Of a stretch of DNA of 64,000 nt, positions 1-30,127 are shown in pieces. Source of the stretch: Marsupella aquatica (Eukaryota > Plantae > Marchantiophyta). The position numbers and the translations under genes are program-made. Under the pieces are notes generated by a model. The model was not told the origin of the DNA and did no database searches. It was given only the letters and a program-made list of their open reading frames with translations. The stretch covers positions 3,831,659-3,895,658 of the forward strand of contig OZ316895.1 in the NCBI GenBank assembly GCA_973895155.1, written 5' to 3'. The first letter of the stretch is position 1. Each line of letters begins with the position of its first letter.

Positions 1-520
1 CCTGAGAGATCCAAGTTGACACTAGTTCTCCAGCCAATTTTGTCGGCGTAGTACTTCCCAACAATATCTAGCACCCCAGGATTTTGTCGATTATGAACTA
101 GAGAATCTAGGTACTCCAGCCGTTTCTCCTTCGGATACAAGACTACCAATGACCAATGTTCTTTCACATCATTGTGTACTGGAAAGACCAGTTTGTCGTA
201 ATCACTGATTTTTAGCGGAAACTCCTTTGTCCAAGTTGCTCTCTCCTCGTCAAAAATGGTAGGATCCATGGAGAGAAGCTCAAAATGTGTGTTTGGAAGA
301 ATTTGACAAGGTCTGACTTTCCAACTCTATCGAGAATCAGTTCGAGAAAACTCAAATAAGCATTAATTATATCATCGGTGAGCAACTCACGCGGTCTCAG
401 ACACATCATATGTTTCCTCTTGATCGAGTGTTGTAAGAACTTGATCAACAACTCTTCCATATCCTTAGAAGGATCAAGGCATTGATCTATTCGACTAGCC
501 AAATTTTCAAAAAACTGCAA
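1..520 (-). pseudogene. Ulp1-family SUMO protease (peptidase C48) catalytic domain, frameshifted, truncated by window edge
   Basis: LRPRELLTDDIINAY is followed, after a 1-nt frameshift near 275, by WTKEFPLKISDYDKLVFPVHNDVKEHWSLVVLYPKEKRLEYLDSL. This gives the catalytic His (HW) and Asp (LDS). The catalytic Cys would lie left of position 1. Confidence 0.85.
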
Positions 521-1524
521 AAAACAGAGATTTCAGTATGCCTTCAAATAACGTACTGAGGTTGTAGCCTAAGGGTTCTACCTCAGAAAACAGAAACAAT
601 AACAAATCAATAATAAAATAATGACGTCTATAATAGAAACTTTAAGCTTATAGCTTGCAAATGACCTTTGGATTGGGTGGATCCGGCCTTTTCGCAGCTG
701 ATCTCTTGGGTGCCTCAATCGCAACAACATCCTTCAGCCCTCCTCGAGACCGCAGTGATCGCTCCATCGGACCAGTTTGCAAAGGTTGGAGCGATGAGGC
801 GGGAAGACCTTCAAATGGTTGTGGCATTTGATTCAAATATTCCACAATCTGGGAATCCGATTCCAAAATATCCGGTGCCACAATTTCTGCGCAAGTGACC
901 TCTGCAATATATCGGGGTCGAGACCACGAACCCGGTCGCGTCAAGTCAGCTGTTAGTCTCTTAACAACTTGAGCCGAGTCTGGTGCCAAAAACGTTCCCA
1001 GGTCTTGCACTCGATTCTCGGAAAAGCGGACATTATTGATGATTGTCTCCATTCTGGATGTAGTGGCAGTCTTCTCCTCGGTAATCAAAAGACCCTTCGA
1101 ATATTGCAAAGCAAGGACTGCCTGGACTCGGAGCTACTCCGATGAATATTTATTCCAATCATCCAACGAGATCGTACTTAAGGGTGGATCGTTAAATTCA
1201 AACTCCGGACAAAGAAAATAGTCTAATATTTTCTTCTTAACTGCAACTGAGGGTGAAGAAGGCTTCTTCAAATTCAGCCTTATTTTCGGTAGACGTTGTG
1301 CCTCAGAAATAAGCGAAAGATCCTTGGCCCTCTTGGCCTCCTTCCTCGCTGCCTCCAGTCTTCCGGCTTCTTCTCTCTCCAGTCTTGCGAAATCGACCTT
1401 TTCTGCCTCCAACTTCTCCGCCTCCACCCTCTCCGGTCTTGCGGTCTCGTCCGCCATCCTCTCGGCCCGCACCCTCTCAGCCGCCACACTCTCCGCCTTA
1501 TTTTCCTCTGTCACTAAAAGGACT

Positions 1525-2350
1525 CTTGCAGCCTCCGCTTTCTCAGCCTGGGCTTTCTCAGCCTGGGCTTTCTCAGCCTGGGCTTTCTCAGCCTGGGCTT
1601 TCTCAGCCTTCGCGTTCTCGGCCTGGGCTTTCTCCGCCTGGGCTTTCTCAGCAAGGACTCTCGCAACCTCCGCTTTCTCAGCCTGGGCTTTCTCAGCCTC
1701 CGCGTTCTTTGCCTGGGCTTTCTTTGCCTGGGCTTTCTTAGCCTGGGCTTTCTCAGCCTACGCTTTCTCAGCCTGGGCTTTCTTAGCCTAGGCTTTCTCA
1801 GCAAGGACTCTCGTAGCCTGGGCTTTCTCAACCTGGGCTTTCTCAGCCTCCGCGTTCTCGGCCTGGGCTTTCTCCGCCTGGGCTTTCTCAGCCTGTGCTT
1901 TCTCATCCTGGGCTTTCTCGGCATCCGCTTTCTCAGCCTGGGCTTTCTCAGCCTAGGCTTTCTTAGCCTGGGCTTTCTCAGCCTCGGCTTTCTCCTTCTT
2001 CTTCGCGGGAGTTGCTTTTCTAGCTGCTGCCTTTTTCTTCTTAACCTCCTTCTTTTGAAGCTCCTCTTGCCGGGCCGCCTCTTGTCGGGACGCCTCCTCC
2101 TGCCGGGCTGCCTCCTCCTGTCGGGCCGCCTCCTTCTTTTGAAGCTCCTCTTGCCGGGCCGCCTCCTGCCGGGCCGCCTCCTTCTTTTGAAGCTCCTCTT
2201 ACCGGGCCGCCTCCTGCCGGGCCGCCTCCTTCTTTTGAAGCTCCTCTTGTCGGGCCTCCTCCAGCCTGGCCTCCTCCTGCTGGGCTGCCTCTAGCCTGGC
2301 CTCCTCCTGCCGGGCCGCCTCCTCTCTGGCCTCCTCCTGTCGGGCCGCCT
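1525..2350 (-). repeat. Coding tandem repeats: 15-bp (AEKAQ)n at ~1525-1995 and (ARQEE/LQKKEA)n at ~2050-2350
   Basis: The plus-strand unit gcctgggctttctca is repeated about 30 times, followed by gccgggccgcctcct variants. The minus-strand frame gives a charged coiled-coil. Confidence 0.9.
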
Positions 2351-5300
2351 CCTCTCGGTCCACCTCATGTCGAGGCTCCTGTGTGGCCTCTTCATCAGAG
2401 TCCTCAGCGTCCTCAGAACCCTCCATCTCCTCGCCCTCTTCATCAGCATCCTCAGCGTCCTTCATCTCCTCTCTGTCACTCTCTTCATCTCCTCTATTGT
2501 CAGAATCTCCGACGTTGTTCTGCGTATCGGTCATCCACTCTGGATCTTGGTCATTGACATCCCCATCCGCGTCACCTTCCACGTCACCTTCCCCCTCACC
2601 ATTCGCATCACCATTGCTCCCTGCATCCTCAACATTGAAGCCGCAGTCAACTTGATCTGAATAAAATCAGATCATTTGATAAGAATGACTCATGCGCATA
2701 TTCGCGTGAAAAGAAATGTTATGAATGTCCACGCGCATGTTCACGTGACGCAATAAAAAGTAAGAGGTTTCAAAAGTAACTTACCTTGGATTGGCCCACT
2801 AGGGTACTCCGTTGGTCGAATGTACAATCGATCGGAATCTTCAGAGAGTGCATACTCTTGCAATAATTGATTACAAATATTATCAATGATATGTTGTTCG
2901 TGGAGGACATCCAAAACATCAGCCCTGAGAGCAGTTACGGATGGACGGTACTTCATTAATTTATCTATACATTTTTCTATACTAGCCCGTACTGGGTCAA
3001 TCAATGACAACGTTGTATCAATTGTCGCCGTGGTGTGTTGCAAGAAACAAGACAACTCCCTATGCGTTGCCATAGGGCAGTAATATTTTACATTGGATCC
3101 AGCATCCTGTAAAAAAAGCTGAAATTAGTTCACAATATTAATTGAGAATATAATAATCTAAATAATCTTAAAATCGAAACCCCAAAATATAAATCTCAAA
3201 ACTTACCATTAAGCACTGGATCAAGTTCGTTCCCTCACCGAAGCATATAGCCCATTCCCCACATTGGACGAATTGACTAACAATACTTTCAAAGAATGGA
3301 AGTATCTTTTCTTGGGAAGGTGTCGTGAACTCGCCGCTCTCTTCAAAATTGGCTATCTTCTCAATCTGATATTTGGAGACCAATTGGAACTCGAGGGCTT
3401 GTGGATCGCCCATTGTGCTGAAGGCCAAGCTGTGAAAAGCGTAGGTTACAATAAGCTTCTTCTCCTTCGGCCACTTCTGAATATAATGGCTATCAACAGC
3501 AACGTAGTGTGTGTACTTCCCTAATTCCCGTTTGATTAAGTAAGACTCAATGGGAGAGGCTACAATAATAACCACATGGTGTGGTTTTGCCCCTATCTCG
3601 CTAGTAGCACGAAATAACCCCTCATAGAATGAGCAATTTGGCGGACGCAAATCTCCCATTGATGAGGGATCAAAATAAATCAAGCTCGCAAGGTTCTTGT
3701 CTTCACGTATGATACAGTCTGCAAACCCAGCATTTTGTATATCCTGTAGGGATTGCAATTTCAGCCTCTCACCGACCGGCCACACTAGTTGGTTTCCTTG
3801 ACTATCAACTGATTTTTGTATTCCTTCCACCAACCTGTAGAATATAGGGTCGATCTCCTTCAACAAATTATCATTACTAATATTTACATTTAAGCACTTC
3901 TTCAGATAACCACTCAACGCATCTCTCAACTGCTTCAGCACCATCTTGTCGAGCTTAAAGCGATCAATCATTCCTTTGACCCGCAATTTTTGCGCTAAAT
4001 CTGTCAGACTTTTCAGCTCCGTCCGGGTGGATGTATCCCCGTTGAGTTTACTCAATAATAAAATCTCAAACTCAACTTTTGTCTTCTTCTTTATACAGAA
4101 TTGCTCCAAACTCATGCTGGTCGTTGACAACACTAGAGCCTCAGAGGACTTCCTCGCCTTCCCAGATTTCACTTTGATACTTCGGTTTTTGAGTATAGAC
4201 AGTCTTCCGCTCAACATATATTCCGCTGCCTTTTGAAGAACCGAGTCTGAGCACCCTTGACAAGAACGGAACGTCTTCTTTAGAAGATGATAAGCATATG
4301 GATTATCCGCAATTTTGACGGCGTCCCTCTGTAAAATTCCGTTGTAAATTACAAGCTCTCCTGTCCTTGATAGTTCATAGACCTCCATCCACTTCTTGAA
4401 TGTTTCGTCCTCCATTGTAAAGAGAAACGGAGCCAATTCTCCAAATTTCATCATTTCGTTCTTCCCTTTTTGAGCCCATGGGCAAACAAAACTTGTAGCT
4501 CTCATAAATACCTGAAAAACAATGGAAACATGACAATTCTAAGCTTGACGCGACCGTTCGCGTGACAAAAGTTTAAACGATAATGTGATCAAAGAGGGAT
4601 ATTTATATACCTTCCAATTTGGATGACGATAATGTGATCCAGGCCGCCCAAATGAGTTCAAGATATTACGACACTGTCGTACAATGGTGAGAAACTATCC
4701 TTCTTCCATTGATGTTTGATGACAGTGGTTCAGAGCTTTCGATAATCCCATCAAATGAACATTATTGTCGTTGTTGAGTGTTGCCCAAAACATTACAGCT
4801 TCTACAGTACCGCAAGCATCTCATACAACTTGGCTGACTTTGTCATCCTCTCTGAGCAATTTGTACGCCATTATTGTGTGCTGGCCTCCGAGTATCCAAA
4901 AATGACTGGTCATAATGTCCTCCTCTTTTGGCGATGAATCGTAGGGCGCCCCATTGTAGTCGGGATCTCTATTGGCCTCCGACTGAACCCACTTCACAGG
5001 GACTAAAAAGCAGCATCGCTTCTCGAACTTTATAGCCGAATGAGAGAGGAGTGAATTCTTTAGCCTATCTGTGTAATCCTGATTCCACTCTCGGTACTTG
5101 ATGTGGTCCGGTGCAAGATGACAACGTGATGTCTCAACAAAAAATGACTTGCTGTTAAATATATTCATAGCACTATATTCTTTGAGGAAAGAATCGAACA
5201 GAGCCCCGACATTCGCTGAGGTAATTACTTTTGGAAGATTCTCCGCCGAGTATACTTCAACCTTGCTCACTGGCGGGGCCTTTCCCAAGCAAAATCCTTG

Positions 5301-5924
5301 GTTGAAAGGAACTCTCTGGAACTCAAGTACGTCAATAATGTATTGACATATCAAATCTCTCGTTGATCCCTCTGGATCAGAAGGATATCCCACACTAGTA
5401 ACCTTTTCCAAGGCGTGCCTTGCACCTAGAAGATCATCGATTCTGGGCTGATTGAAGGTTACATATTGCGTTCGATCCAAACAAATGCTTATTTTGTCTT
5501 CCTGCTGGTCGTCGCTAACTAGCAAAACCAATCCCTCTGTACACTCTTTAACTTTCATGTTCTTCTCAAAGAAACACCCGAGAATTTTTTATCTCTCCAA
5601 AACTGTAGCTTTATCATTTCTTGCCACCACAAGACGGATAGCCCCATTGCGAACGACTATTCCAAAATTGGATATCTCAGTCGATTCAAAGAGATGGATA
5701 CTCTTCGTCTCCGGTGTTCTCTCTCTGATTGACTTTCCTCGGTATGCAAGTATGGATGTCTCCGCGGGAGTCATTTTTGTCTTGGTTTTCTTACGAGAAG
5801 CAGCTTTAGACGAGTCTCTTTTCCGCTTTGAGGTTCCGGTAGGATCCATTCTGAAATAGACAAATATTGAAAGTTAAACGTTTATTATAAAATACTAACA
5901 CGTGCATGGTCGCGTTGTGCCGAA

Positions 5925-6455
5925 TTACATTTTAGGAACATTTATCCTGACCCAATCTTCTCGCTCATCTTCATCTAACCAAAACCAAAGGTTCTTAAAC
6001 GTGTCAAGTTCAAATCCTTCAAATCCACCCAGAATGTCCAGCGGCGGGAGAGTTTTGATGGATTCTGTAAATCTTAATGCTACACTCCGTGAAGTCAAAT
6101 GCCTTCGAAGCGATTCATATCCTGGTCTATCAGTGAAGTCGTAAGCTACCAAGGTGACCGTCGCCCAAGTACTACTATAAGTAACTATGTGGCACCACTT
6201 CTTACTGACTGTTCGAATGGCGATCAAGTCCATGACCCGATTTTTAATTGCAGTATCCGATAAATTCCCAAGACAGTGGAAAAACTCTTTGACTAATGGC
6301 CAAATATATTTCTTGACAATATCGTCCGGAAGACCGGGTATCAGGTCTTCAGCTTGACTCCATATCATGTTTCGGTTGATAACCTTTGCACGTGCAATGC
6401 GCTCCATCATTATTTGACGATGAGATTTTCGATTCATGTCAAAGGATTGCAGCAT
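5925..6455 (-). CDS. Small F-box protein (paralog 1)
   Basis: LIPGLPDDIVKKYIWP...IRTVSKKWCHIV is an F-box-like motif; open 176-aa ORF. Confidence 0.7.
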   Translation of the reverse strand: MLQSFDMNRKSHRQIMMERIARAKVINRNMIWSQAEDLIPGLPDDIVKKYIWPLVKEFFHCLGNLSDTAIKNRVMDLIAIRTVSKKWCHIVTYSSTWATVTLVAYDFTDRPGYESLRRHLTSRSVALRFTESIKTLPPLDILGGFEGFELDTFKNLWFWLDEDEREDWVRINVPKM

Positions 6456-6539
6456 AATATGGAAAAGATTAAGAACAAGAACCTATCCATTAAGAACTGG
6501 GACCACCAAGATTCTGAGAAAATCTACCAAACCTTTCGA

Positions 6540-7055
6540 TTAGGACATCTCGTTCTCCTCATCTAAATTGTTATATTTGTTCGTAAACAATGCTATTTTG
6601 TCAGAAGTAGTAGTCCCAAGAACAGATATTTCTGGAAGCATAGAAATATCCTGTCGAATAACTCGACAGACTGAGTCAAACTCCAACTCGTCAGTTTCGG
6701 GTATGTCGTAAAGAGCATCATTTGCGACATCGACAATCCGGTTTGCTTGTTTGAGGATAGCCCATAACCTTGTATTTGTAACTAAAAAGTTCCACTTCTT
6801 GCTACAAGCTCCAAGCCAAATAAGGTCTCAGACCCTATCGATAACCAAATCGTTATCGAGGTGTCGATATCCACGCAATCTTTCAATTGAAATAAAGTGT
6901 TCATAGAGTATTGGCCAAATGTTTGAAATGACCAAAACATCTGGTATTCCTCCAATGAGACTAGAGGAGGTTTCATCCAGCGTATCCTATATTGTTTTAT
7001 GTTTCTTTTCATGAGATGAAAGGAAATCTCAAGCCTCATTCAAAAGTTGGCTCAT
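6540..7055 (-). pseudogene. Small F-box protein (paralog 2), three premature stops
   Basis: Manual translation from ATG 7055: MSQLLNEA*DFL...TI*DTLDETSSSLIGGIPDVLVISNIWP...RV*DLIWLGACSKKWNFLVTNTRLWAIL...EMS*. It is 172 codons and colinear with the two neighbouring F-box genes. The ORF track does not report it. Confidence 0.7.
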
Positions 7056-7120
7056 CCTGCTTTTATCATATCACAAAACATTGTTAGAAGACATACGACG
7101 CGCTTGGTCACGTAAGTTAA

Positions 7121-7672
7121 CTAGAATTCCTTAAAAGCGTAGATGTCACCCTCAAGGTATCCAACTTCGTGGCATTTGACTGTAAATTTCCATTTTTCAA
7201 GAGGGTGAAGAGCATCGTAAGTCTTCGTGAAGAGTTCCCTAAGATCTCTGGACATTGACCCCATGAATTTAATTCTTGGGTATTTCTGGAAGAAACTTTG
7301 AACTGTCGATGAGAGAGACTCATTTCCGATCGGTTTAGTAGGATTTCCTGGGAAAGCCAAATTTAATAAACTCAACTTGATTACACCCAGAAGATAGGTA
7401 TTCCCAACAAGGTGGCGCCATCTGCGACACACCGAAGATAGTCCTACAAACTCATCCAATTCCTTTATTGAGAAATTTCCTGCATTAGCCAAGGAATTAA
7501 AAGTCTCCTTGATCCAAGGCCATATCAATTCCGCGACAATGAAATCTGGAAGTCCAGGTAGTAGTGTTTCAACAAATACAGAATATCCCGCCAGTAGACC
7601 ATCTTGGCTTCTGTCCAAAACGTCAAATATTGGGCATAGATATCTGAAGCTCTTCAGACCAGGTTCGCCCAT
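7121..7672 (-). CDS. Small F-box protein (paralog 3)
   Basis: LLPGLPDFIVAELIWP...LSSVCRRWRHLV is an F-box motif; open 183-aa ORF. Confidence 0.75.
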   Translation of the reverse strand: MGEPGLKSFRYLCPIFDVLDRSQDGLLAGYSVFVETLLPGLPDFIVAELIWPWIKETFNSLANAGNFSIKELDEFVGLSSVCRRWRHLVGNTYLLGVIKLSLLNLAFPGNPTKPIGNESLSSTVQSFFQKYPRIKFMGSMSRDLRELFTKTYDALHPLEKWKFTVKCHEVGYLEGDIYAFKEF

Positions 7673-7812
7673 GACTCTTTTCAGCTGAATGATATATCCC
7701 AGAGATTATTTTCACGCGACTGGTCGCGTCTACAAATCAGAATGTATAAACAATTCTTTGAGAGACTGATTTTTTCGGGTCACAACGTGACAAATTATAA
7801 ATGTTGCTTCGT

Positions 7813-8453
7813 CCTCTAACAGAACCAGTCAATGAGAGAGCTACCTCAGATGCGAATGGTCGCGTCAACTGCTCCTAAATGAAACCTTACCTCCTCTAAC
7901 AGAACCAGTCAATGAGAGATCTACCTCAGACGCGACTAGTCGTGTCAACTGGTCCTAAAAAGAACTTTACCTCCTCTAACAGAACCAGTTAATGAGAGAG
8001 CTACCTCAGACACGAGTGGTCGCGTCACCTGAACCTAAACAACTATATCCATTGAACCTTCCTTGTGGAGATTTGGATATGGTATGCACTCAGTAAATCT
8101 ATCCAGTTTCCTTCTCACACGCGACTGGTCGCGTCAATTGGTCCTAAAAGGAACCTTACCTCCTCTAACAGAACCAATCAATGAGAGAGCTACCTCAGAC
8201 GCGACTGGTCGCGTCAACTGGTCCTAAAAGGAACCTTACCTCCTCTAACAGAACCAGTCAATGAGAGAGCTACCTCAGACGCGACTGGTTGCGTCAACTG
8301 AACCTAAACAACTATATCCACTGAAACTTCCTTGTGGAGATTTGGATATGGTACGCGCTCAGTAAATCTATCCAGTTTCCTTCTCACACGCGACTGGTCG
8401 CGTCAACTGGTCCTAAAAGGAACCTCACAATATTTTCACGCGACTGGTCGCGT
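7813..8453. repeat. 80-bp tandem repeat with 269-bp higher-order period; each unit carries the ACGCGACTGGTCGCGT palindrome
   Basis: Unit cctctaacagaaccagtcaatgagagagctacctcagacgcgactggtcgcgtcaactggtcctaaaaggaaccttacct starts at 7813, 7893, 7973, 8162 and 8242. A ~109-bp intervening block occurs twice. Confidence 0.9.
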
Positions 8454-9536
8454 CAACAACTCAAACAACTTTTGGACAATAGGATAAGACAGTGATACAA
8501 CTGTGATTATTGACTCGTACGGACAAGGAAATCCGAGTAAGCATGATTTCATTCATTTGTATTCATTCATGAACTTTACAATAATTCAGATGTTTGAGCT
8601 CTGTCATTGTGAAACTATTATATATCAGAAGTTTAGAGAATGATCCAGCTAAGATGATTCAATTTAGCAGTCTACTGGTTGTATTCGTCAATTAAAGGAT
8701 TTAGTGTAATGAGATTCACATAACATGAGAGTTTATATGATTAAATTCACAGCGTGCAAGTTTGTAATGACTTACTTAAGACGATTCAGGTTGTATTTTA
8801 ATTAGTGAGTTTGTATGATTCACACATATTTGAGTTTACAAACAAACCGCATTATGAAAACTCAACTTAATAATCAAGAGAAATTTTAGCAAACCACAAT
8901 CAACACCAGCAGAAAATGTAGAAATTGCACCTGAATTCTGAAAAATTGATGTAATCGTCTGAGAGATTGACGTCTAAGCACTTGAAGACCTTGTTGCGGC
9001 ATTCCAGAAAGTAAATATAAGATTGAAGATATTAATATGCTAAACAACAACAACACAGCTTCTATACTTCTATACATAGAGCTTCGCTGCCACCAATTGA
9101 ATAACATGTGCTTAATGCTAAGGAGCTCATTATGTCGAGTTAAAAAGACTCTTTCAGAAGTATAATCAAAGCTATGGATAGGCAAATTGAGCATGAATAA
9201 AAGCGCACTAAACCTGAAGATTCAAAGAGGTGAAACAAACCTGAATACTGAATGGAAGGAGCTAAAACAAGCTGCCAAAAAGTAGTTCGAGCTGCTGAAA
9301 CACGTTGATCAAGCTGATATGAGCTTAAAATTGGCTGACACGAGCTGATACAAGCACTCCCAAAAAGCTAGCTGCAATGAACTAGCAAACTAGAAGTGAA
9401 TACGAGCTGTAAATGCGAGCTGCAATGTGCCAATGAGCTCCTGGTCGAAACGATGGACAACTACTAAGAGCTGCAATGCGCCGACAAGCACCTGACCACA
9501 ACGAACGAGCTGCAACGACAAAAATGAAATCCAGGG

Positions 9537-9706
9537 CAGGAGCAAGAGCAGCGAGAGCGAGAGCAGCAAGAGCGAGAGCAGTGAGAGCGAGAGCAGCGAG
9601 AGCGAGAGCAGCGAGAGCGAGAGCAGCGAGAGCGAGAGCAGCGAGAGCGAGAGCAGCGAGAGCGAGAGCAGCGAGAGCAGCGAGAGCGAGAGCGACGAGA
9701 GCAGGC
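9537..9706. repeat. GA-rich simple repeat (gcgagagcagcgaga)n
   Basis: About 11 copies of a 15-bp unit are directly visible; they produce spurious Ala/Arg/Leu ORFs. Confidence 0.9.
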
Positions 9707-12401
9707 ACGCAAAAGTCTAGGGAGCGAGAAACAACAACAATGAACAGTGAACTCGAGACTGTGGGCGCCGACACTAAGGAAGGACTAATTAGGGTATTGT
9801 TTTAGCATAACCCTAATAATAGCCTAGCGACAGGAAGGTTCCAGATGATCTCCGTACACTCCACCATCGACTGAACAAACTATGCAATCGTGAAAAAAAG
9901 ATTACCAGATTCCTTTTGATTTGCCGTACTAAAGGAGATTTCTATTTGATCGCCAATTTGAAATTTAAACCGGTAATTATGCAACTGCGAAAGATTGTTA
10001 GTGGGGACCCCTGGATCCGGATCCGTATCTTCACTATATCTGCCAATTCAAATCCAAAATGTGAATGAATGACAACTTTCTCACGATCGTTCCATCACGT
10101 AGTGGAGGTGAACTTCAAAATCATTCCATTTTGGTAGTGGAGACCGTCGGATCCAAATCCGTACTCCACTCTCTATCTTGCCAATTCAAACCCTTACTCT
10201 AAACAACGTAAAACGATTCTCACGGTCGGGGAGAACCGATATTCAAAATCAATCCTGTACAATGATTCTCACGACTGGAGACTCAACCAATTTTCAAAAT
10301 CAAAATCGAGTCCAAATGAACACATCCTCCATGGAGTCAATAGACTGATCTCATTGCTCACGGATCATTCTTCATTTTCAGTTTCTCCTGACCAGGATAC
10401 TAGCTGGGCTCTCAGCGGAGGCTGATCCAAGGCACATTTGAGGTGGAGCAGATTGGATCATTCGACTATTCCAATCGGAGGCGGAGCTCATACAAGCAAC
10501 GCTAGCGCAGCTCTTGTTGTATCACCTTCAATCTTGGGGAGAGCACATCCGATCAAGCAGGAGAGTTGCGACGAAGCGAGACGACAAACATTTAGAACCT
10601 CCATAGTCTGCCTCATTCATCGAAGCATTCTAGCGGACCAACAAAGAGCAGCTATTCTGAAATCACAGTCTGGTCAAGGATTTTGATCTTGATACGATCA
10701 ACAAGTTGTCATTCTCTGGTGGTGGGATTTGATCACGATACTCAAGGAAATTGGAGTTTGAAGGAGGAGGCTTAGTTGGCTGGGACGAGGAGGCTACGTT
10801 GGAAGGAAGAGGCTTGGCTGGGAGGAGGGTTTCCGCCAACATCGGAGGGTTGCCGCCAACATTGCTGAGACCACACGCAACTGAATAACTTGTAAGTATC
10901 AATCAGCATTAATTCCGCAATAAATGAGGAGAGTAGTTGCCTTAAATCACGCATTCAATGCATGAATTGAGTCAATGAAGTTATGGTCCAATTTCTCACT
11001 CCGATTTTGATCAATCTGTGTTTCAAGTCCAATACAGAAGCAATATATCAGAAGTACTAGTAGAGGATCCGAATGAATTCTCTAGTCTAAAATTGTATGG
11101 CGTACGCGTATAGTTGTCCGTACGTTTTGCTATTGTTTATTGTAGTCGACGGCCTAGCAAAACGAAACGTAATCGAGGTCCATTTTTCAGATCTTCCTGA
11201 TCTCAACTTGTTAGTAGGATGACCTATTTTTTGGTTACACATGTAGTTCGTCATGCGCACAGTCGTGTGAACCAATCTATCTCGTGTCTTTTGATATTGT
11301 TTATTGTAGTCGACAGCCTAGCAAATTGGCCAGCAATCTATTTTAAAACCAACGTCTTCGTTTCATCACGCGCACGGTCGTGTTAATGTTTTAGAGGTCA
11401 GCGAAAGCTCTGCACTCTTAGATGTAATCGCCCTTTATTTCTCAGATCTGCCTGATCTCAACTTGTTAGTAGGATGACCTGTTTTTGGTTACACATGTAG
11501 TTCATCACGCGCACAGTCGCGTGAACCAATTTATCTCAGGTCTTTTTGATATTGTTTATTGTAGTCGACAGCCTAACAAATTGTCAGTCAGAGGAATCTC
11601 GATTTTTCCTTGATTGCAAAAATGGTTACATCGATCCCGAAGGACTTCGGATGTGGACTCCATATCCACTAGCACTATCCAGGAATTTAAGCTACACAGT
11701 ATCTATAACAAGTTCTAACTTGAACTACACTTGAATTTGTAGTTCTAATCTTTGACTACTCAAAATATTGTTGACTTTGATCGAGTCAGTCATTCCAAGA
11801 TGAAGGCATCCACTCATCGGTGTCTGGTGTGGATTCCCTTGAATCCAGAAATTCTTCCTTTGCCCAAGTCCTAACGTCCATAGATTTTCTCGGCTTGCTC
11901 TTTCTGTGATACAAATCAGAATCTTCGTTCATCTCTAATTGCCTTTTCTTTGGTGTGTCCACTTTCTTGGCCTCCTTCTTGACTGTCTTAGCATCTGCTC
12001 ACTAGAAGAAAACAGGGCCCTTTATGACCAATCACCCAATGACAGAGATGAATAAATGACCAAAATTTCTAATGACACAAAAAGAATGACAGGGGAATGA
12101 CTATCCACAATGACCAATAGACTGAAATGACAAAATGTTAACTTTTGCGTCATTTTGTATAATGTCTGTAATGACTGATGCGACCAAAATGACCCAATTT
12201 TCCTAAATGGTCAATTTAGACACGTGTCTTAAATGACGCAAATAATAACAACAATGATAAATCAATGTTTAGCAACATTATAGTCACTCTAGACAATGAT
12301 AGAAATGACCAAAAATCTATTTAGGTCATTTTGGACAACGGTGATAAATGACAAAAAATGTATTACCGTCATTTTAACCAACGGTGTTAAATGACAAAAT
12401 A

Positions 12402-12830
12402 TAGGGTCAATCTGAAAATGAGAAATAATATATAAGTGTTTACAATAACATATTGTCATTATGGACTCCTCCCATAAATGACTAACTCTAGGGTCAATCT
12501 TGAAATTAGGACATATCAGTGTTTACAAGAACATACCGTCATTATGGACTTCTCTCATAAATGACTAACTCTAGGGTCAATCTTGAAATTAGGACATATC
12601 AGTGTTTACAAGAACATACTGTCATTATGGACTTCTCTCATAAATGACTAATTCCATAGTCATTCTTGAAATTAGGATATATCGGTGTTTACAATAACAT
12701 ACAGTCATTATGGACTTGTCGCATAAATGACTAAATATAGGGTCAATCTAAAAATTATGATATTCAATGTTTACAATAACATACAGTCATTATGGACTTA
12801 TTGCATAAATGACTATTTATAGAGTCATTA
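12402..12830. repeat. ~83-bp tandem repeat x5 in the CACTA left subterminal region
   Basis: Unit tagggtcaatcttgaaattaggacatatcagtgtttacaagaacatactgtcattatggacttctctcataaatgactaactc starts at ~12402, 12489, 12572, 12655 and 12738. Confidence 0.9.
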
Positions 12831-12919
12831 AAGAACCCAAGAGATATGAAAATTAAAATACTCAATAGTCATTCCAGACACCGGTCATAATTGTAGAGTC
12901 ATTGATATGGTTGATAACC

Positions 12920-15900
12920 TTTCCACTAAGTGCGAGACACAATACTCATCATTGTCCTCCCACTAGTTGCGGATTAGCAATTTGAACACATGTCTTGCAT
13001 TTACTTTAGGCATGATGCACCTAGCTTTGGGGAAATCACTCCCAAGTCATACACCTTTGGAGTGATTTTCCAGAACTGTCACCATATATAGATGCGCGCA
13101 TACTATCGTATCCAAAGGCAAATGAAACTTTTTTGTCTCTCCAAGAAGTAGGGCAATACCAATGGAAGGTTGTCAACCTTTGTTGTAATTGTGTCATGTT
13201 TGTGCCTTTGTTTGGATGGGGAATATTCTATTTTGCAAATGAATAGTGACAGGGCAATGAAGGATGTAGTGTAATCTTTATTGGGTCATTTTTAGACAAA
13301 TTTGTGTCATAATGCCAATGACTACAAGTAGAGTCATTAAACTGTCATATGGTATGTCATATCAGTCAAGTGACGAGACTTGTGGTCATTTGTGTGGTCC
13401 CTCATGCAGTCATTAAACACAAGCACAAATGACCAGTTTGGGGCTAGGGGCTGGAGATGGGGCCTAGAGTGCAATGGGGCCCCACATAGAGGTGAGAACC
13501 CCTCCACTAGGTGCAGGACACTATACTCATCATTGTCCAACCACTAGTTGCGACATAAACACTTTGGACACATGTTTTTGCGTTTACTTAAGGCATGATG
13601 CACCTTTGGGGAAATCACTCCCAAGTAGTATGACTTTGGAGTGATTTTCCAAAAGTGTCACCATGCATGCATACCATCACATCCAAAGGCAAATAAAAGT
13701 TGTTTTTTGGTTCCCCAAGAGGTAGTGATGCACCAATGGAATGGGCAAGGGAGTCGTGCTTCTCAGTATGGTGTGGGTGCGGGTTTAGCAAAGAGGAATA
13801 TTCCAATCTTGCAAGGAATCTAGAGTTGGCTCTAGTTGGAGGTACTAGGGCCTTTATTGGCTCATATGTGAGCAATGGCCCGTCATAAATGCCAATGACT
13901 AAAAGTAGGGTCATTAAAACTGTCATATGGAGTGTCATATCAGTCTAATGACTGGATTTGTGGTCATTTGAGGGGTCCCTTATGCAGTCATTAAGGAAAA
14001 GCATAAATGACCAGTTTGGGGCTAGGGGCTTGAGGTGGGCCCTAGAGTGCCATGGGGCCCCACATAGAGGTGAGAACCCCTCCACTAGGTGCGGGACACT
14101 ATACTCATCATTGTCCAACCACTAGTTGCAACATAAACACTTTGGACACATGTTTTTGCATTTACTTAAGGCATGATGCACCTTTGGGGAAATCACTCCC
14201 AAGTCGTACGACTTTGGAGTGATTTGCCAAAAGTGCAACCATGGATGTATACCATCCCATCCAAAGGCAAATAAAAGTTGTTTTTTGGTTCTCCAAGAGG
14301 TAGTGTTGCACCAATGGAATGGGCAGGGGAGTCGTGCTTCCTGGTATGGTGTGGGTGCGGGTTTAGAGAAGAGGAATATTCAGACCTTCCAAGGAATCTA
14401 AAGCGGGCTCTCTTTGGAGGTACTATGGCCCCCATTGGGTCATTTTTGCGCAAAGTTGTGTCATAAGTGCCAATGACTACAAATAGGGTCATTGAAATTG
14501 TCATTTAGGATGTCATATAAGTCAAATGACTGGACTTGTTGTCATTTGAAGGGTCCCTAGTGCAGTCATTGAAGACAAGCCTGAATGACCAATTTGGGGC
14601 TAAGGGCTGGAGGTCGGCGCTAGAGTGCCATGTAGACCCACATAGAGCTCGCAACCCCTCCACTATGTGCCAAATACTATATTTACGATTCTCCAACCAC
14701 TAGTTGCATCATTAGCACTTTGGTCTCATTTCTGTGTTTACTTAAGGGATGATACAATCTTGGGGAAATCACTCCCAAGTCATACAACTTTGGAGTGATT
14801 TGCCAAAAGTGTCACCATTGATGCATACCATCCTATCCAAAGGGAAATGAAGCCATTTTTTGTTTCTGCACGAAGTAGCGCAACACCAATGGAAGACTAT
14901 CATCCTTCCATGTAATTGTGTCATGTTTGTGCCTTTGTTTGGATGGGGAATATTCTATTTTGCAAATGAATAGTGACGGGGCAATGAAGGATGTAGTGTA
15001 ATCTTTATTGGGTCATTTTTAGACAAATTTGTGTCATAATGCCAATGACTACAAGTAGAGTCATTAATATTGTCATATGGTATGTCATATAAGTCAAGTG
15101 ACTAGACTTGTGGTCATTTGTGTGGTCCCCCATGCAGTCATTAAACAGAAGCACAAATGACCAATTTGGGGCTAGGGGTTGAAGGTGGGCCCTAGAGTGC
15201 CATGTGGCCCCACATAGAGGTGAGAAATTCTCCACTAGGTGCGGGACACTATACTCATCATTGTCCAACCACTAGTTGCGACATAAACACTTTGGACACA
15301 TGTTTTTGCGTTTATCAATGCATGATGCACCCTTGGGGAAATCACTCCCAAGTCATACGAATTTGGAGTGATTTTCCAAAAGTGTCACCATGGATGCATA
15401 CCACCGTATCCAAACGCAAATGGAGCCATTTTTTTGTCTCTCCAAGAAGTAGTGCAACACCAATGGAAGGTTGTCATCTTGTGATGTAATTGTGTCATGT
15501 TTGTGCCCGTATTTGGATGGGGAATACTCCATTTTGCATATGAATAGTGTCGGGGCATTGTGAGTAGGTGTTATAATCTTCATTGGGTCATTTTGGAGGA
15601 ATAGTGTGTCATTAATGCCAAAGACTGCAGTAAGGGTCATTTTGGCCGTCCGTTTGGAAGTCATTTGTGCCAAATGACTCCATATGGGGTCATGATAGAG
15701 GTCCCTCATGGTGTTATTATGGACCATAAAAAATGACCCTTTTGGGTCTAGGAGCTTAATGTGGCCCTAGTGTGCCATGGGTCCCTACATGAAGGTGGCA
15801 ACCACTCCACAAGGTGCGGGGTACTATACCCACTATTCTCCAACCACTAGTTGCACCATGAGCACTTTGGAGCCATGTTTTTGCAATTACTTAAGGGATG

Positions 15901-16400
15901 ATCCAACATTGGGGAAAATCACTCCCAAGTCATACAACTTTGGAGTGATTTGCCAAAAGTATCACCATGCATGCATACCATTCGTTCCAAAAGCAAACAA
16001 ATTATTTTTTTGTCTCTCCAAGAGAGATATAGTGCAATACTAGTGGAAGACTATGTCCTTCTATATAACTATGTCATGTTTGTGCCGACATTTGGATTTT
16101 GGATATATTCTATTAAATTTCAAAGGAATTGTAAGGGGGCACTCTGAGAGGCAGTATACTCTTTATTGGGTCATTTTCACATAATATCTGTCATTAATGC
16201 CAATGACTACAATAAGGGTCATCTTGGTAGTCATATTGGAGGTCATTTGAACAATTGACTGCATATGTGGTCATTAATGAAAACACCTCAAATTAGGGTA
16301 ATCTTGGTTGTCATACTAGAAGTCAGAAGTACCAAATGACTGGAAATGTGGTCTTTACAAAGGCTATTGGGGGGTTCTCTTTGGAGGTACAAGGGAGTTC
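12920..16400. repeat. ~578-bp internal satellite, ~6 diverged copies
   Basis: The anchor ccactaggtgcgggacactatactcatcattgtccaaccactagttgc recurs at ~12920, 13500, 14078, 14657, 15230 and 15805. ggggaaatcactcccaagtc(a/g)tac..tttggagtgattt is present in each unit. Confidence 0.9.
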
Positions 16401-19400
16401 ATTGGGTCATTTGAATTAAATGGTGCTTCAATCTGAGGACTAAACATGGGGTCACTCACGCTGTCATATTGGAAACCATTAATGTTGGCATATTGGAGGT
16501 CATATAGTCATGGGAAGGCTCACTTGTTAATGCTTTGGTGTAATGCTCTCAAAAACTTTTAGACAACATAGCCTCATATGTAGTGGTCATGTAGCATGTA
16601 AGGGGCCCGTGAAGTGGGCCCTAGACGAGGGTGTTGGCAAGGGCATGTACAAAAGTACACATACTATACATATGTCTATATGAAACTAATAGTTGCCCTA
16701 TAAATGTGCTTGAGTCATGACTGAGGGTTTCTCTTGAGGTTTCTCTCAATTGAGTCACGAGTGGAAAGCTATTAAATGCTAACATTTGGATGAGTATCAC
16801 TATCATATGGTGAGACTAATAAGGTAGTCCAAAATTGTGTTCATGCATGCATATATTTTTGCAGACATAACCTATCACTCAAAAACCATGGCCGGTACAT
16901 AGTTAATTACACTAATGTAATCCACAACACCCTCACCTCCCATGAAGGATTAATTTGTTTAAATGAGGGGCGGGTTATGGGTTTAGGGTCAATGTGATTT
17001 TGAGCCATAACTCTAGAGCACCAAGTTAGAAAACCAAGGTTTTCCCTTGGTCCAAAAGGACCTTTTATATTGCGGGCATCATTTTTTATATATAACATGC
17101 GTCCTTAACATTCTTGTTGGCACCTACACAAACAGCCATGACCTTTAGGGCTCTCTTTAAATTGGATATACCATAACCTTCATTGGGTTTTTTGCAAACC
17201 AATAATGGAGAGGTATTAAGTTTATAACCTAGTGGAGAGGTATTAAATTGTCCAACCTAGTGGAGAGGTATTAGATTTTTGGCACCTACACAAGTGCCAA
17301 CGGCTGAGATCACACCCTAGATCATACAATCAACATCGTGCTCCAATTCCCGCATTCTTGTAGTAGGCCCTCGGAACAAAAGTGGTCGACAAATCTGCAT
17401 TGGAGGTGCACAACGGCAAATGTCGAGTCGAGCACAAGTTGTGAAATGTAGGGTTTTTGTGGTTGAGGTGCGCGTTTTCATCAAAGGAATGTGGCGGTGG
17501 GCAATGTGCATGGAGTGCGGGGCGCACTTGAGTTCAGTTGCGAGTTGAGACAGCTTTGTGGAGTGCGCACTCCGTTTCTTCCCACAAACTGTATCAGGGT
17601 GCTGCGCGCGGTCAGGGGAGTAGGAAAGCTTAGGGTGAGCCGGTAGGACTTGGGAGCTACTACCACGGAAGAGCTCCAATCCATTGTTGCAGTGTCGCGC
17701 AACATTGCAGAGCATTTGGCGTTAACGTTGGAGCTATATGTCTCAGAAAGCTGCCAAGGGCGACGATGTGCGATCGATGATAACCAATGGGTGAGGAGGA
17801 GACTTGGGACAATACATTACGAAGGAGCTGCGGGAGGCTACCTCAGCGAAGGGCGACAAGCTGTGATTGGTGATAACCTGCGGGTCATAAGCTGCGAGCT
17901 CGGCTGCGAGGAGTGGTTTAGGGTTCATTGGGAAGGAGCTGCAAGCTATGATTGGGGTAACTAAGCTACAGAGGAGTGGTGGAGCTGCGGGAGGTCACAT
18001 TGGTGGAGCTTCGAGAGGTCACAGCAGGCAGGATCTGCGGGAAGAGCTGCAGGAGGTCTCACCGTTCGTCAGTGTGCTGCGGGAGCTGCGGGAGGTTACA
18101 TCGGGAGCTACGGGAGGAGAAACGGGAGCTGCAAGAGGTTGTGCTCTTCTTCCCCTTCAATCTGGCTATGTTTCATAGTTTCAATTTACTCTTTCCTTTT
18201 GCCATGCTACCCCTGCCTTCTTGCTATGTTGCTCTATTGCTCTGTTTCTCCTCCTGCTTAGCATACATTTTTTGTGTTTGCTATGTTAAGTTCCGAACCC
18301 TTCGATTGCCACGAGACTATTACCTCAACCTCTCAGTCCCTCTCTAGAGCTCTCTCTGTGATTGCTCGAGGTTGCACCAGTTCTTCCGAGTTTTCCATTT
18401 TGGCTGCTGTTGATTTCCGACAGTCCCTATCAATTGTTTGATTGTCATTTTCCCTCTGAATGGTACTGCTTGAGTTCCAACACCGAATTGAACAAAAACG
18501 TGCTCATGTCCTTGGCAGGAGTTCTGCACGACCTTAGACAGTCGTCCCCTCTCATGTGGTGTGCATAAGTTGAAGTGGATAAATCTGTAATTCTAAAAGC
18601 CACCTTCTGCCTGAACTTGTCACCAAAATTATGAGAACCTATTTTTCTAACAGTCCCTTCACATAAACCATGCCCTTTTCCATTAGACCCAATTCTTGTC
18701 GGAGACGATCGATTTGTTCGTCATTGCCTTGGATTATAACATCAGTCGATCATTCATCATCAGCTACCACCAACTTTACTTATATCTGCTCCTTTTGTGA
18801 TGCTCTCGTCCAATAATAGAATCCTTTGAGTAAACGAATGAAGAATGTTGTTAGAACGGCATACAATAAGCATTGAGGCGTACACGGGAAGGACAAGATT
18901 GACCCTGTTCAATGCTTGAGTGGGCCAGGATTGTTTCTGCCTAAGTGGAAGGCTGGTCTGTTTAATGCTGCCTAATTGAACATAGAATCTGCTAGTAAGT
19001 TCATGGAGTTTGGCAATGAATGTTTCATTGGCAATGTTTGTTGTGTTCGTTGTGTTCAGTGGGCCGGAATGTCTTACAAAATTATACCCCACTGTCCACA
19101 AAGTCCAAATGGAGAATTTGCCATCAAATGATTTTAGTCGTTTACTTCAAACAAATAAATTTTGTTACAGAGAATGATCCAGAAGAAGTCTTGTCACATT
19201 AGGAGAGTACTAACCTTCCTAGACCTGACGCAACTTGGGATGGATCATCGCCTGGGTATCTCCCGCTTTAGACTCTGGGTAGAATTTCCCGATGCTATGC
19301 AGGGACAAGGTGAGAACTTTATTCACAGCCTTGACCCATGTTTACTTCATGCCTCTACATGATTTCATTGTGTGATTGTTTTGAAGTCGTAGCCGTGGTG

Positions 19401-20228
19401 AAAAGCTGGTCTATAAAAATCGAATTCAGGTTGCTGCTGTATATAAAGCGCAGCAGGATCAAAACTAGAAAACTGTCCCAGCAAATTTTGTAGCTCTCAC
19501 TACTTGAATATATAAATTATTTGCCCTGATCGGTCTTAGCCTGCTGCGCACAAGGCAGGCAATGAAACAAGTCTGTCCATTTTAAAACTTGAGAACCCGG
19601 GTTCCTCACTTCTTTTCTTCCGACCCATCACGCGCGAATAAGTATAGGGTTTTTTTATTGGGTTTAGTGAAATACTTTTAAATTTTTGTTGAAGAACATT
19701 AGGGTTATTTAAATCCAATTTTGAGAATTATAAGAATCATAGGGTTTTTTTAAATCAAATATGGGAATATTCTTGGAATATTCCATTAAGTTATGGATAA
19801 AACAATTCCTAAAAAAAACTTTATTGACTTAACTTTTAGGGTGTTTATTCCCCCAAAACTTCGAGCGTGATATGAGACACCCCTTGGATTGAGGCCCCCG
19901 AGCTTGAGAACCAATGCTTTGCTGAAACTCAATTGCTATTTGTTCTGTGTTGCCCTTACAGATTTAAAAAAGGCAGGGTGAGTGAGCACTGCTGGACAGA
20001 AGGCGAAGGCATACAGGTTGCAATATTTGTGATTGCTTCCAATCATAGGCCAAGGTTATTTGCGTTGCTCAGTCCTAGTGCTTTGCCATCCATAAAGCAT
20101 TGGTTTATGCTGCTCCCTTGTGGTTACATGTCATATTTTATGCTGCACCCTCATTCTTTTGTGTCATGTTGCACCCTGTTATTCCTTCTTGTTTCACAAT
20201 CTGATGTAGGGTCTGAGTGTGCAGGACC

Positions 20229-20888
20229 ATGGCTCGCAATAAGCAGAAGGCCATGAATCGTTGCAGAGGTGAATCCTCTCAAGCACCTCAATTGGCCTTA
20301 TATTCAGACATTGAGATTAACCAAAATAGTCCACATGTATGTGCGATTTGTGATGAGGGAGGGGATCTCATTGTTTGTGATGGGCCTTGCCACCGACATT
20401 TCCATAAGAATGTTTCCTGTCCTTTGGGTCAGCAATGGCTATGCCCAACTATATCCCTGGCTGATGGCCATGTTGGAGAATGGCTTTGTGTTGATTGCAA
20501 GAATGATGAACATTCTTGCTTTAAGTGCCATGTGTCTGGAAAAATTGGTGAAGAGGTAAGAAAATGTCCAGACCCTCTCTGTGCCCGGTTTTACTGTCGG
20601 CAGTGTTTGGTTTCTGGCACAGCATCATGTGGACTCCATATTTGTCTTACTTGTGGACAGGGGCCCAATGATGGGGCTAATGGCTTTTTGGTTCAGTGCA
20701 TGAGGTGTCCTAAGGCATGGCACAAGGACTGCCTGTTGTTTATCCAACAGAGGGGATTTGCCCATGATCGAACAATTTGGGATCACTCAGCGCATGGGCA
20801 GCCCAAGAAGGGGATGTTTTACTGTCCTGACCATGACATTGACCCTACACTAGGCACTCCTGCTAGGAGCCACATATCTTGGATTTGA
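20229..20888 (+). CDS. Stand-alone EDM2-like composite PHD-finger protein carried inside the CACTA element
   Basis: Intact intronless ORF from ATG 20229: CAICDEGGDLIVCDGPCHRHFH...CVDC...CFKC...CPDPLCARFY...CGLHICLTC...CMRCPKAWHKDCL...IWD...FYCPDHDIDPTLGTPARSHI. As I recall the EDM2 PHD region (CAICDNGG..CEGSCLRSFH / CRRCPKSYHRKCL / IYCQEHEID..LLTPVRDH), the two are colinear. Confidence 0.85.
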   Translation: MARNKQKAMNRCRGESSQAPQLALYSDIEINQNSPHVCAICDEGGDLIVCDGPCHRHFHKNVSCPLGQQWLCPTISLADGHVGEWLCVDCKNDEHSCFKCHVSGKIGEEVRKCPDPLCARFYCRQCLVSGTASCGLHICLTCGQGPNDGANGFLVQCMRCPKAWHKDCLLFIQQRGFAHDRTIWDHSAHGQPKKGMFYCPDHDIDPTLGTPARSHISWI

Positions 20889-21472
20889 TTGAGGCTGGAT
20901 GGAACACAAACTTGAGATAGAGCTTTTTGATGGTTTCACGTGGACTTAAACAATTTTCAGAGTGCTAAAACATGTGGACTATTTATATGCAGTTTGATGA
21001 ACTCCTCATGTATACACACTCTACGACAGTGCATTGCGGATTGAGGCAATTAATTTTGAGAAATCAACTTTACTATCTTTTCCAGGGTAGGATTCCGATT
21101 TTCATGCATGTGCTTTGAGTGTGATGTCTAAACTTCACTTGTAAATTTGTCACTGATGTCACAAACGTTACTTATTCCAGACCTGTCTGCTCACATTCCT
21201 AATAGGCAAACAAATATTGGAAATGATGAAGGCACAGAGATTTACGTTCATAGTATCATTCTGATGACACTGTATGTGATGCTCTATTTGTATGCAAGAA
21301 GGAGAAGGTGCCTCACTACAGTGGATTTGAGAAACTGGGCTCTGTGGGTTTGAGCAATTGGACTGTGGTTGGCATCGGTTGTACAACTGTGACGGTAGGC
21401 CCAATTTTGTATGCATGTCACACTGATTCAGTTTGAAAATCATAGTTTGAATACAATTTCAATCAAGCTAGC

Positions 21473-24400: not shown

Positions 24401-25408
24401 CATGCATCATTATATATTGGAGAATGAAGAGACAGTGGCTCCATGGTACAGGTACATAAACCCTAAATTATGTTGCCCCATTGTGTTTGTATATTCATGG
24501 TGGATCATGCACTAATGTCTTCAGTGTTGTTGTTGCCATGTAGGATATATGATGCTACCAATGAGACTGTTACCAAACGAAGAGTGGATTTACGGAAGGA
24601 ATGGATGAGGAAGCCTGCCAATCGAAGAAAACCGGTGGAATTTCCCGCTGACTGCCAAGAATTGCCACCTTTCAGGGAATGGTTTCAAACATTAGTCAAT
24701 ACCCATAATTTTGAGAAAGAGTCTGAGCGGTCATTACTATCTGTATACTCCACACCACCTAGTTTGAAGGCACGACTGTATAGGGCATGCAGAGCCTATG
24801 GGCACCATTGGAGGACTATTCCATCCTTGGGGTGTTTGAGTGATTGTGATTCTGGTGCTTTCAGCACTTTTGATTCTGGGATGGCTTCTACATTCACTGA
24901 GAAGCGAGTGGACAGGTCTGGTGCAACCATAGAAGAATCTGTACAGTATGTAGGGGCCTTGACAGATATCTTGGTACTGAATTACGGCAGCTTGAGGAAA
25001 GAGGTGATTCTTTTCAAAGGGAAATGGGCAGATCCATCATGGACTCCTAAATCCTCTGCCAGTATGAGGTATTCCGAGTCTGGTCTTTGGCAGGTGAATT
25101 TCCATAGAGAACTGGGTGTGTCCAAGAAAATGCATTACGTTTTCCCAAAGCAAGTGGAGCAGGTTTTCTTCCACCCCAATGAGAAGGGGATAGCATGGAG
25201 AACAATCCTCCACAAAGAATCCAGGTCCACAAGGGTGTTAGGTGATTACATAGACTTTGATTTCCATGCTACAATGGAAAACAATGCCAAATTACACATC
25301 GAATTGGCTAAGGCCTGTAGGTCTAGAGCAAATCCAGGACCATTGACTGGTCCCAAACGAGGCAGAGATGCAGAGGGATCTGCAAGAAAGGGCAGGCATA
25401 AGCAGTGA
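21473..25408 (+). pseudogene. CACTA TnpD/Tnp2 transposase (transposase-associated domain, Transposase_21, DUF4218, DUF4216), one frameshift
   Basis: KMYCPCVNC..RLHLIKHG; frameshift at ~22160; RNVRFGLALDGVNPFG, NYNLPPW, WTINDYPAYG. Intron 23331-23540 joins LPYWN|KLLINHCLDPMHCEKN. GLKSHDFH, FPPSFFDVMTHL, RWMYPIER. Intron 24452-24543. YVFPKQVEQVFF. Confidence 0.93.
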
Positions 25409-25499
25409 ATAGGTTTTAGGTGTGTGCGGGGGTGTGTGAAGTCCATAGATGGACTACATGTATGGACTATATATGAAATCAGACTAATGGTTTACCCAT

Positions 25500-28400: not shown

Positions 28401-28690
28401 GCATTTTTAACAAAATGTGTTGTTCACAGTTTGCAAGAGGAGATTTGGTGAAGATGAAGAGCGTTGTGGACAATTCCATGATAGTGGCAGAAGGTGAGGT
28501 GACAGGGCTGCCAGGAGAAGATAAGTTTCATTGTGCAGATTTTGAAAGCCCTTTCTTGCGAGTGCGTGTGATTGAAGTGTTTGTAGATGTGGCATTGCCA
28601 TTTGCCAATTCAGGGGAGAACCAGTCTAAATTATCTGATGTGAAAGGGATGAATGCCCTATGGAACTCTAGATTGCTTAAGAAGCAATAG
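25500..28690 (+). CDS. CACTA TnpA-like multi-exon gene (Transposase_24-like region and C-terminal Tnp1/En/Spm-like domain); exon structure approximate, may be disrupted
   Basis: 26750-27200: GPSGVDPKKWAALVSHFTSP..SKQMTDKRARVQDTSHFGRGG. 28430-28690: IVAEGEV..FHCADFESPFLRVRVIEVFVDVALPF..LSDVKGMNALW. Many short GT-AG introns; a possible in-frame stop at ~28193. Confidence 0.75.
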
Positions 28691-29795: not shown

Positions 29796-30127
29796 GCTGC
29801 TGCTTCCCCCGAAATGGATTAGACGCATGCTCTGGCCTTCAACTTCTCCCCCTTCGAAACGGATTCCACGAGGGCTTTGCCCTTTAACTTCTCCCCTGAT
29901 GCCATCTTTGTAGTCATCTCTGTCGGATTGGTCTCCATCTGATCTTCCATCGACAAATATGGCGAACAATGTCATCTCTCACAAAACATTTGACCCGATT
30001 TAGTCACCGCAAACATTATATTACATCGCTGACACATTCTGTAAGGAGTACCACGAATTCGATACGTCGAACCTTCTGAATCGTCCGTCGAAACATCCTC
30101 ATTCTTTGAGCTTAGCGGAGTAGTCAT
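29796..30127 (-). pseudogene. 5' half of a small zinc-ribbon-like ORF split by the CACTA insertion (continues at 11996-~11870)
   Basis: MTTPLSSKNEDV...MCQRCNIMFAVTKSGQMFCER*HC...SISGEAAA joins in frame to DAKTVKKEAKKVDTPKKRQLEM... once the element and one TSD copy are removed. Confidence 0.6.

Follow-up and report, generated by a model that had tools for sequence, protein, structure and literature searches.

The closest described counterpart to the locus reported here is Sola1-1_Ec32 of the brown alga Ectocarpus, a 21.5-kb giant element whose accessory gene lies opposite the transposase and encodes a 1,104-aa protein in which an N4C/N6A methyltransferase-type domain comes after a ParB-like one (PMC12477816). 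In the supplement of that paper, the best match of Sola1-1_Ec32 is the transposase of the moss element Sola1-1_PPa, and Sola1 has been described in Physcomitrella (PMC9033089). Here, we analyze a 64,000-nucleotide stretch of the liverwort Marsupella aquatica (contig OZ316895.1; hereafter, the window). We find that it contains a many-copy giant DNA transposon carrying a spliced giant gene, whose protein joins ParB-like and methyltransferase-like regions to an Ulp1 SUMO-protease domain and might protect the element from silencing.

The Marsupella element is like Sola1-1_Ec32 in its size (at least 17 kb), its opposite-strand accessory gene, the order of its ParB-like and methyltransferase-type regions, and its nested insertions. 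Unlike the algal element, it resides in a land plant and encodes a protein of about 1,790 aa or more, although the two were compared by description rather than by sequence. The Marsupella protein also adds a PH-like domain, peptide repeats, and Ulp1; its methyltransferase motifs are degenerate; and the element carries F-box genes. For Sola1-1_Ec32, we found no mention of a dispersed palindrome or CpG footprint in the available text (PMC12477816). A preliminary description of the Marsupella locus had considered the transposon possibly undescribed, but a transposon gene combining ParB and methyltransferase domains is already in print (PMC12477816), and the Marsupella element extends a design so far described in algae.

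A second parallel is offered by VANC/KIU anti-silencing proteins. VANC motifs occur in introns, upstream regions, and tandem repeats of VANDAL Mutator elements (PMC5735166), and some VANC/KIU proteins carry Ulp1 (PMC13317346). The Marsupella element likewise encodes an accessory protein with peptide repeats and the optional Ulp1 domain, and has an element-specific short motif in introns, upstream regions, and other non-coding DNA that is amplified by tandem repeats. It differs in its transposase family, its ParB-like binding module, and its motif, a palindrome rather than 8-9-mers in the same orientation. No Pfam match to the VANC domain was found in the giant-gene protein or its homologs. Compared by description, the element resembles Sola1-1_Ec32 in layout and possibly VANC in function, and we assign it to neither group. 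Demethylation has been shown for VANC, whereas for the Marsupella element it is only proposed.

Similarities also extend to more distant systems. The predicted ParB/Srx fold is that of bacterial ParB, Noc, KorB, and PadC, and the palindromic sites of bacterial ParB-type proteins are of similar size to the palindrome described below. Unlike those proteins, the Marsupella protein has Thr or Ser in place of the GxxR arginine, is ~9-15% identical to them, is spliced, and has no ParA. Its ParB-then-methyltransferase order is that of phage fusions; phage ParB-terminase methyltransferases have been discussed as donors, and inactive methyltransferases are described for transposons (PMC4738411). In giant fungal Starship elements, DUF3723 is a conserved cargo (bioRxiv 2021.12.13.472469). 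In Atlas, the ParB region of one homolog (P0005, residues 185-375) is nearest to DUF3723 clusters (0.94; 191 and 178 shared features); this is a lead only, by which fungal DUF3723 may contain a ParB/Srx-type domain. Unlike in Starships, no tyrosine recombinase was seen, nor a Pfam match to DUF3723. Literature searches returned nothing linking DUF3723 with ParB, only unrelated papers for ParB/methyltransferase/Ulp1 transposon genes in bryophytes, and nothing on DUF7869/Sola giant transposons with cargo genes in Riccia; these absences are weak, since the searches also missed the Ectocarpus paper. SUMO proteases are carried by Zisupton/KDZ elements. Zisupton has been associated with F-box genes (PMC12062965). 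The Marsupella element is likewise a large DNA transposon with F-box and Ulp1 cargo, but its transposase has no KDZ or CxC Pfam match.

A spliced giant gene on a many-copy transposon

The giant gene lies on the minus strand, with an ATG at 5849, and its joined open reading frames (ORFs) run leftward past position 1 of the window. The preliminary description had proposed that these scattered ORFs splice into one protein, and they do join in frame: five exons (5849-4611, 4511-3207, 3106-2785, 2656-666, and 514 onward) are linked by four GT-AG introns of 99, 100, 128, and 151 nt (64-78% AT), giving 1,695 codons down to position 287 and ~94 more beyond a frameshift. Introns 1 and 2 are backed by homologs, in that exon-sized database ORFs enter an intron at the same place, and one homolog (P0029) has exon-1 and exon-2 sequence within a single ORF. 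The weak donor of intron 4 (665) is placed by reading frame alone. All exons probably belong to a single transcript.

The window copy of the giant gene is dead, as had been recognized, because it carries eight premature stops (5591, 4823, 4697, 2201, 1955, 1790, 1760, and 1136) and a frameshift near 286; it has since decayed. Both the 4697 stop and the frameshift are missing from other copies, represented by contigs of sequencing runs (X1 to X4). The differences listed between X1 and the window copy include 146 A>G and T>C changes versus 63 C>T and G>A changes, a skew that fits C-to-T decay of the window copy.

Contigs of X1 and X2 cover positions 1-12500 in 30 of 30 bins. Single contigs over the element have depths in the thousands, against tens on neighboring host genes, a ratio of tens to >100-fold that is not a copy number; 6-phosphogluconolactonase and threonyl-tRNA synthetase (ThrRS) served as low-depth host controls. 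Because its depth is so far above that of host genes, the giant gene is not single-copy. It is carried by a many-copy giant DNA transposon and is not a host gene, in agreement with the preliminary description.

The transposase was expected to the left of position 1. Instead, a DUF7869 gene lies to the right (33395-36705, plus strand; Pfam PF25273, 128 bits, cut-off 26) and is likely the transposase of the giant element. It encodes three acidic motifs (IHDKMD at 34856, QLDNCASDNKN at 35464, and GHTHEDVD at 35575), and its intron contains TTTAGGG/CCCTAAA telomere-like repeats (35320-35365). We take DUF7869 to be a label for Sola-like transposases. Two nested insertions separate this gene from the giant gene, and both are absent from other copies: X1 and X2 run straight from 11999 into 29799, without the CACTA element found in the window, and X1, X3, and X4 join 31305 to 33326, leading directly into the transposase gene. 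These empty-site joins, with continuous high depth, place the giant gene and the transposase on opposite strands of the same element. Between the insertions, the element continues as a CpG-rich segment upstream of the transposase (29799-31305), with two palindromes and tandem repeats.

On the right, the element ends between ~37040 and ~37430, where depth has dropped to the level of an adjacent hAT element. We found no CGGTT terminus in 36700-37520 and, around 37 kb, nothing that could be taken with confidence for a hAT or Sola terminus. With the inserts subtracted, the element measures at least 17 kb, its left side being open and off the window. It also carries three tandem small F-box-like ORFs on the minus strand (5925-7705: 7705-7121, ~6990-6490, which is broken, and 6482-5925). 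Their Pfam F-box matches are below cut-off (E 0.0024-0.057), and the outer two are 33% identical (pairwise E 6e-14). An Rfam scan of 1-37500 gave no match. A small lysine-rich minus-strand ORF of the element (11786-11999 and 29799-29912) is split by the CACTA insertion. A 15-bp tandem repeat at 9382-9805 (GAGCGAGAGCAGCGA, ~10 copies) has several open frames and copy-number variants in the runs, and may be an exon belonging to another gene of the element.

Domains of the giant-gene protein

Exon 1 (4611-5849, 413 codons, three stops) encodes a basic N-terminus, a PH/PTB-like domain (~5745-5310), and a ParB/Srx-fold domain (~5170-4700), with limits mapped from alignment A1. Both folds are predicted: the ParB/Srx fold was recovered when an AlphaFold2 (AF2) model of homolog P0004, not of the window copy itself, was compared by Foldseek and VIA-align (predicted local distance difference test, pLDDT, 79). 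Giant-virus ParB/Srx proteins are among the fold matches of an exon-1 homolog. The motifs reported earlier are all present on the minus strand: FWILGGQHT at ~4901, LIYFDPSS (D at 3671), QEKILPFF at 3314, ~119 codons after, and CFGEG..CLM|DAG spanning intron 2. The suggestion of a GxxR-type ParB/Srx core is borne out for the fold but not for the arginine; W-I-L-G-G-Q-H-T stands where GxxR would be, and all 11 members covering the motif have Thr (10) or Ser (1) instead. This replacement makes a CTPase “DNA clamp” role doubtful, and judged by its residues the protein does not have the catalytic signature of ParB CTPases.

Exon 2 (3207-4511, 435 codons, open) encodes a helical region and then, from ~3780, a methyltransferase-like region, which ends in exon 3 (2785-3106) and is followed there by a helical segment. 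A single-sequence AF2 model of the exon-2 helical region is poor (pLDDT 31.6); its position after the ParB domain makes it a candidate DNA-binding part. Atlas matched exon 2 to N6/N4 methyltransferases with 10 of 10 family hits in agreement, at a score (0.87) below the tool's 0.9 line. With hhalign in global mode, the match to a first template set was reached by 0/60 and 1/60 block-shuffled controls. Motifs IV and I are both degenerate. None of the four members has a DPPY-type motif IV of the form (D/N/S)PP(Y/F/W) (DPSS, DCSV, DSTL, and DSTL), and motif I (CFGEG, CFSEG, and CFGEG) departs from the DPF-G-G pattern. Because the DPPY-type motif is missing from all four, the earlier suggestion that this domain is catalytically dead fits, and by these motifs the protein does not qualify as a beta-class methyltransferase; for the fold itself the evidence is mixed.

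Exon 4 (666-2656, five stops, 3′ splice donor uncertain) encodes an acidic tract, EEAARQ and AEKAQ (15-bp) peptide repeats of coiled-coil-like composition, and a linker. Exon 5 (1-514, with the frameshift) encodes an Ulp1/C48 SUMO-protease domain, as had been proposed, with a match of 28.7 bits to Pfam PF02902 (cut-off 20.7; E 1.5e-6). The Ulp1 His and Asp are present, and the Cys region falls beyond position 1.

With a threshold of E 0.001, the exon-1 search returned 29 representatives, of which two (P0014 and P0031) were dropped as unrelated bacterial proteins by Pfam and one (P0029) was shifted to the exon-2 alignment. The remaining exon-1 homologs are exon-sized ORFs with 24-57% identity, and a shared WK|V intron marks the end of many of them. 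Exon 2 has three homologs of near-equal length (38-52% identity) and none among longer or shorter proteins. Pfam searches of family members found no ParB or methyltransferase match, NCBIfam profiles gave nothing relevant for exon-1 homologs, and PDB sequence and profile searches gave nothing meaningful; in PHROGs, 3 of 8 exon-1 homologs drew ParB-like rows, all of them weak (E 0.099-0.56). Pattern scans of viral and prokaryotic contigs and a search of phage records found no relatives, and metagenomes yielded one decayed 17-residue match (L001) without informative context.

Palindromes, CpG retention, and a proposed anti-silencing role

We find a dispersed palindrome, (TS)ACGCGA-N4-TCGCGT(SA) (ACGCGACCAGTCGCGT-type), with 19 matches versus 0.44 expected (0/100 shuffles); like the PH-like domain, the F-box genes, and CpG retention, it had been overlooked in the preliminary description. 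A position weight matrix built from 18 palindromes detected 21 sites, 20 of them inside the element (926-31181, by pattern and matrix scans), none in the transposase gene, and none in 41000-64000. The sites form eight clusters, of which seven are non-coding; the coding one is a single degenerate copy in exon 4 (926). Two others lie in intron 3 (2692 and 2731) and one in intron 1 (4548); three adjoin gene starts (5900, 7098, and 7714), and the rest fall within tandem repeats of 80/269 bp (7850-8438), at 11253-11507, or ahead of the transposase gene (30905 and 31166). A pattern with a 5-base spacer gave nothing, and 61 isolated single sites in viral contigs were read as chance. The two motif-bearing blocks have CpG observed/expected (o/e) ratios of 0.83 and 0.93, compared with 0.34 for CACTA and 0.32 for the transposase gene. 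CpG at codon position 3|1 is far better preserved in the giant gene than in the CACTA or DUF7869 genes.

Our favored reading, which we hold tentatively and at somewhat short of even confidence, is that the giant gene is an accessory gene whose protein binds the element's 16-bp palindromes via its ParB-like half and keeps the element unsilenced by local SUMO removal. A ParB-derived dimer would read the two half-sites, the dead methyltransferase-like relic may add a DNA or cytosine contact, and the exon-4 repeats would provide a spacer. Host silencing factors would then be removed or degraded by Ulp1 together with the F-box proteins, and CpG retention would record long-term escape from 5-methylcytosine (5mC). 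A wider account seems possible but less probable: that a giant transposon of early land plants co-opted a ParB-methyltransferase of phage type for sequence-specific anti-silencing. Both of its enzymes would have lost their activity and been retained to recognize a parS-like CGCG palindrome, with a SUMO protease fused to them and F-box proteins in support. VANC-like self-protection would then have arisen a second time, independently, and DUF3723 of fungal Starships may use the same ParB-type module.

Several observations weigh against the anti-silencing reading. The gene-transposase link is a chain of joins, no single contig spanning both, and the element termini, target duplication, and Ulp1 cysteine were not seen. 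Beyond the substituted GxxR arginine, shuffled controls reached the hhalign match to the first template set in local mode (5/60 and 10/60) and to a second set in global (8/40 and 14/40) and local (3/40) modes, so the above-control result was not reproduced. However, even ParB alignments failed to score against phage ParB-methyltransferase fusions (E 0.06-0.6), which makes the test insensitive with shallow profiles. The transposase gene lacks the palindrome and is depleted in CpG (o/e 0.32; 16:122, p 4e-5 versus the giant gene); thus, any protection acts only locally, or the halves of the element differ in their history. Furthermore, the CpG level of the giant gene is statistically indistinguishable from that of the host ThrRS gene (p 0.22), and a nested solo LTR (long terminal repeat) is CpG-rich (0.80) yet palindrome-free. 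CpG retention therefore does not need the motif, which makes the footprint argument weaker.

These CpG data bear on the strongest alternative, in which the protein of the same element is a transposition helper or self-activator, binding palindromes to join distant ends or activate genes, and CpG retention marks expressed, promoter-like DNA. Such a role would suit the host-like CpG level, the palindromes adjoining gene starts (5900, 7098, 7714, and 30905/31166), and the long repeat region, which could again serve as a spacer; bacterial ParB proteins bridge and condense DNA. We nevertheless consider it unlikely, though well worth weighing, as the intron 1 and 3 sites and tandem-repeat amplification match the VANC pattern, and the Ulp1 and F-box cargo suggests host-protein targets.

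The sharp end of CpG content and palindromes at the transposase start could also mean that the CpG-rich block of giant gene, F-box genes, and palindromes has an origin of its own or was acquired recently, perhaps from a virus or another transposon, before fusing to a Sola-like element and being amplified together with it. Phages do encode ParB-methyltransferase fusions, and giant-virus proteins appear among the fold matches. Such a history is improbable, given spliceosomal intron positions common to homologs that are only 30-50% identical, the lack of relatives in the viral, prokaryotic, and phage searches above, and the same opposite-strand layout published for algal Sola1 (PMC12477816).

We give little credence to the idea that the amino-methyltransferase of intact copies is active despite a divergent catalytic site, writing N4-methylcytosine (4mC) or N6-methyladenine on CGCG palindromes and so blocking host 5mC. 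The motif IV acidic residue is kept in 4 of 4 members, whose methyltransferase-like regions are still 34-47% identical; an active role was proposed for the algal protein (PMC12477816), and Marchantia has 4mC at CG sites (bioRxiv 2021.02.12.428880). However, motif IV has no PP-aromatic part and motif I no DPF-G-G, conservation is lower here than in the helical region for five of six pairs, and Pfam N6_N4_Mtase (PF01555) matches none of the four members. Finally, a pseudogenized single-copy host chromatin gene, which the introns and host-like CpG content might suggest, is refuted in practice by the depth (tens to >100x that of neighboring host genes) and by copies open at the 4697 stop and 286 frameshift.

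In the literature, as far as the available text goes, the functions of ParB-methyltransferase accessory genes on algal transposons and of Ulp1 domains on plant transposons are still proposals. For the Marsupella element, a candidate site for binding and a CpG footprint are at hand, as are tens of near-identical copies, some of which lack two of the window copy's lesions; the anti-silencing idea is therefore directly testable. If true, it would represent a second natural system of sequence-targeted desilencing in plants, and would connect the cargo of giant elements in algae with that in plants and possibly in fungi.

Nested insertions and neighboring features

The nested CACTA element (12000-29795, plus strand, 17.8 kb) is complete, with CACTAG...CTAGTG ends and a 3-bp GCT target duplication, and is foreign to the giant element. 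It encodes Pfam Transposase_21 and DUF4218 domains, carries an ORF with an NSD-type PHD finger (20217-20888; PHD_NSD and PHDvar_NSD above cut-off), and contains a 578-bp tandem array with internal palindromes (~12900-16300). The solo-LTR-like insertion (31311-33325) lies in the 5′ end of the transposase gene, with TG...CA ends and a 5-bp ATTAT duplication. Within it are repeated GACGCTTC...GAAAGCGTC palindromes (31800-32400) and two similar internal segments.

A hAT-type transposase (DUF659; 37507-39465 and 40284-40766) adjoins the right end of the giant element; it has CCCGAC-rich subterminal repeats, and its termini were not found. Beyond it are the two host genes, 6-phosphogluconolactonase (41679-43712) and ThrRS (47561-49454). 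Judged by its housekeeping genes, CACTA domains, and TTTAGGG-type repeats, the window reads as DNA of a land plant, probably a bryophyte. The segments 53596-55409 and 59240-62865 hold uncharacterized GC-rich ORFs without a Pfam match, together with a Harbinger-type transposase (DDE_Tnp_4) and convergent partner ORFs.

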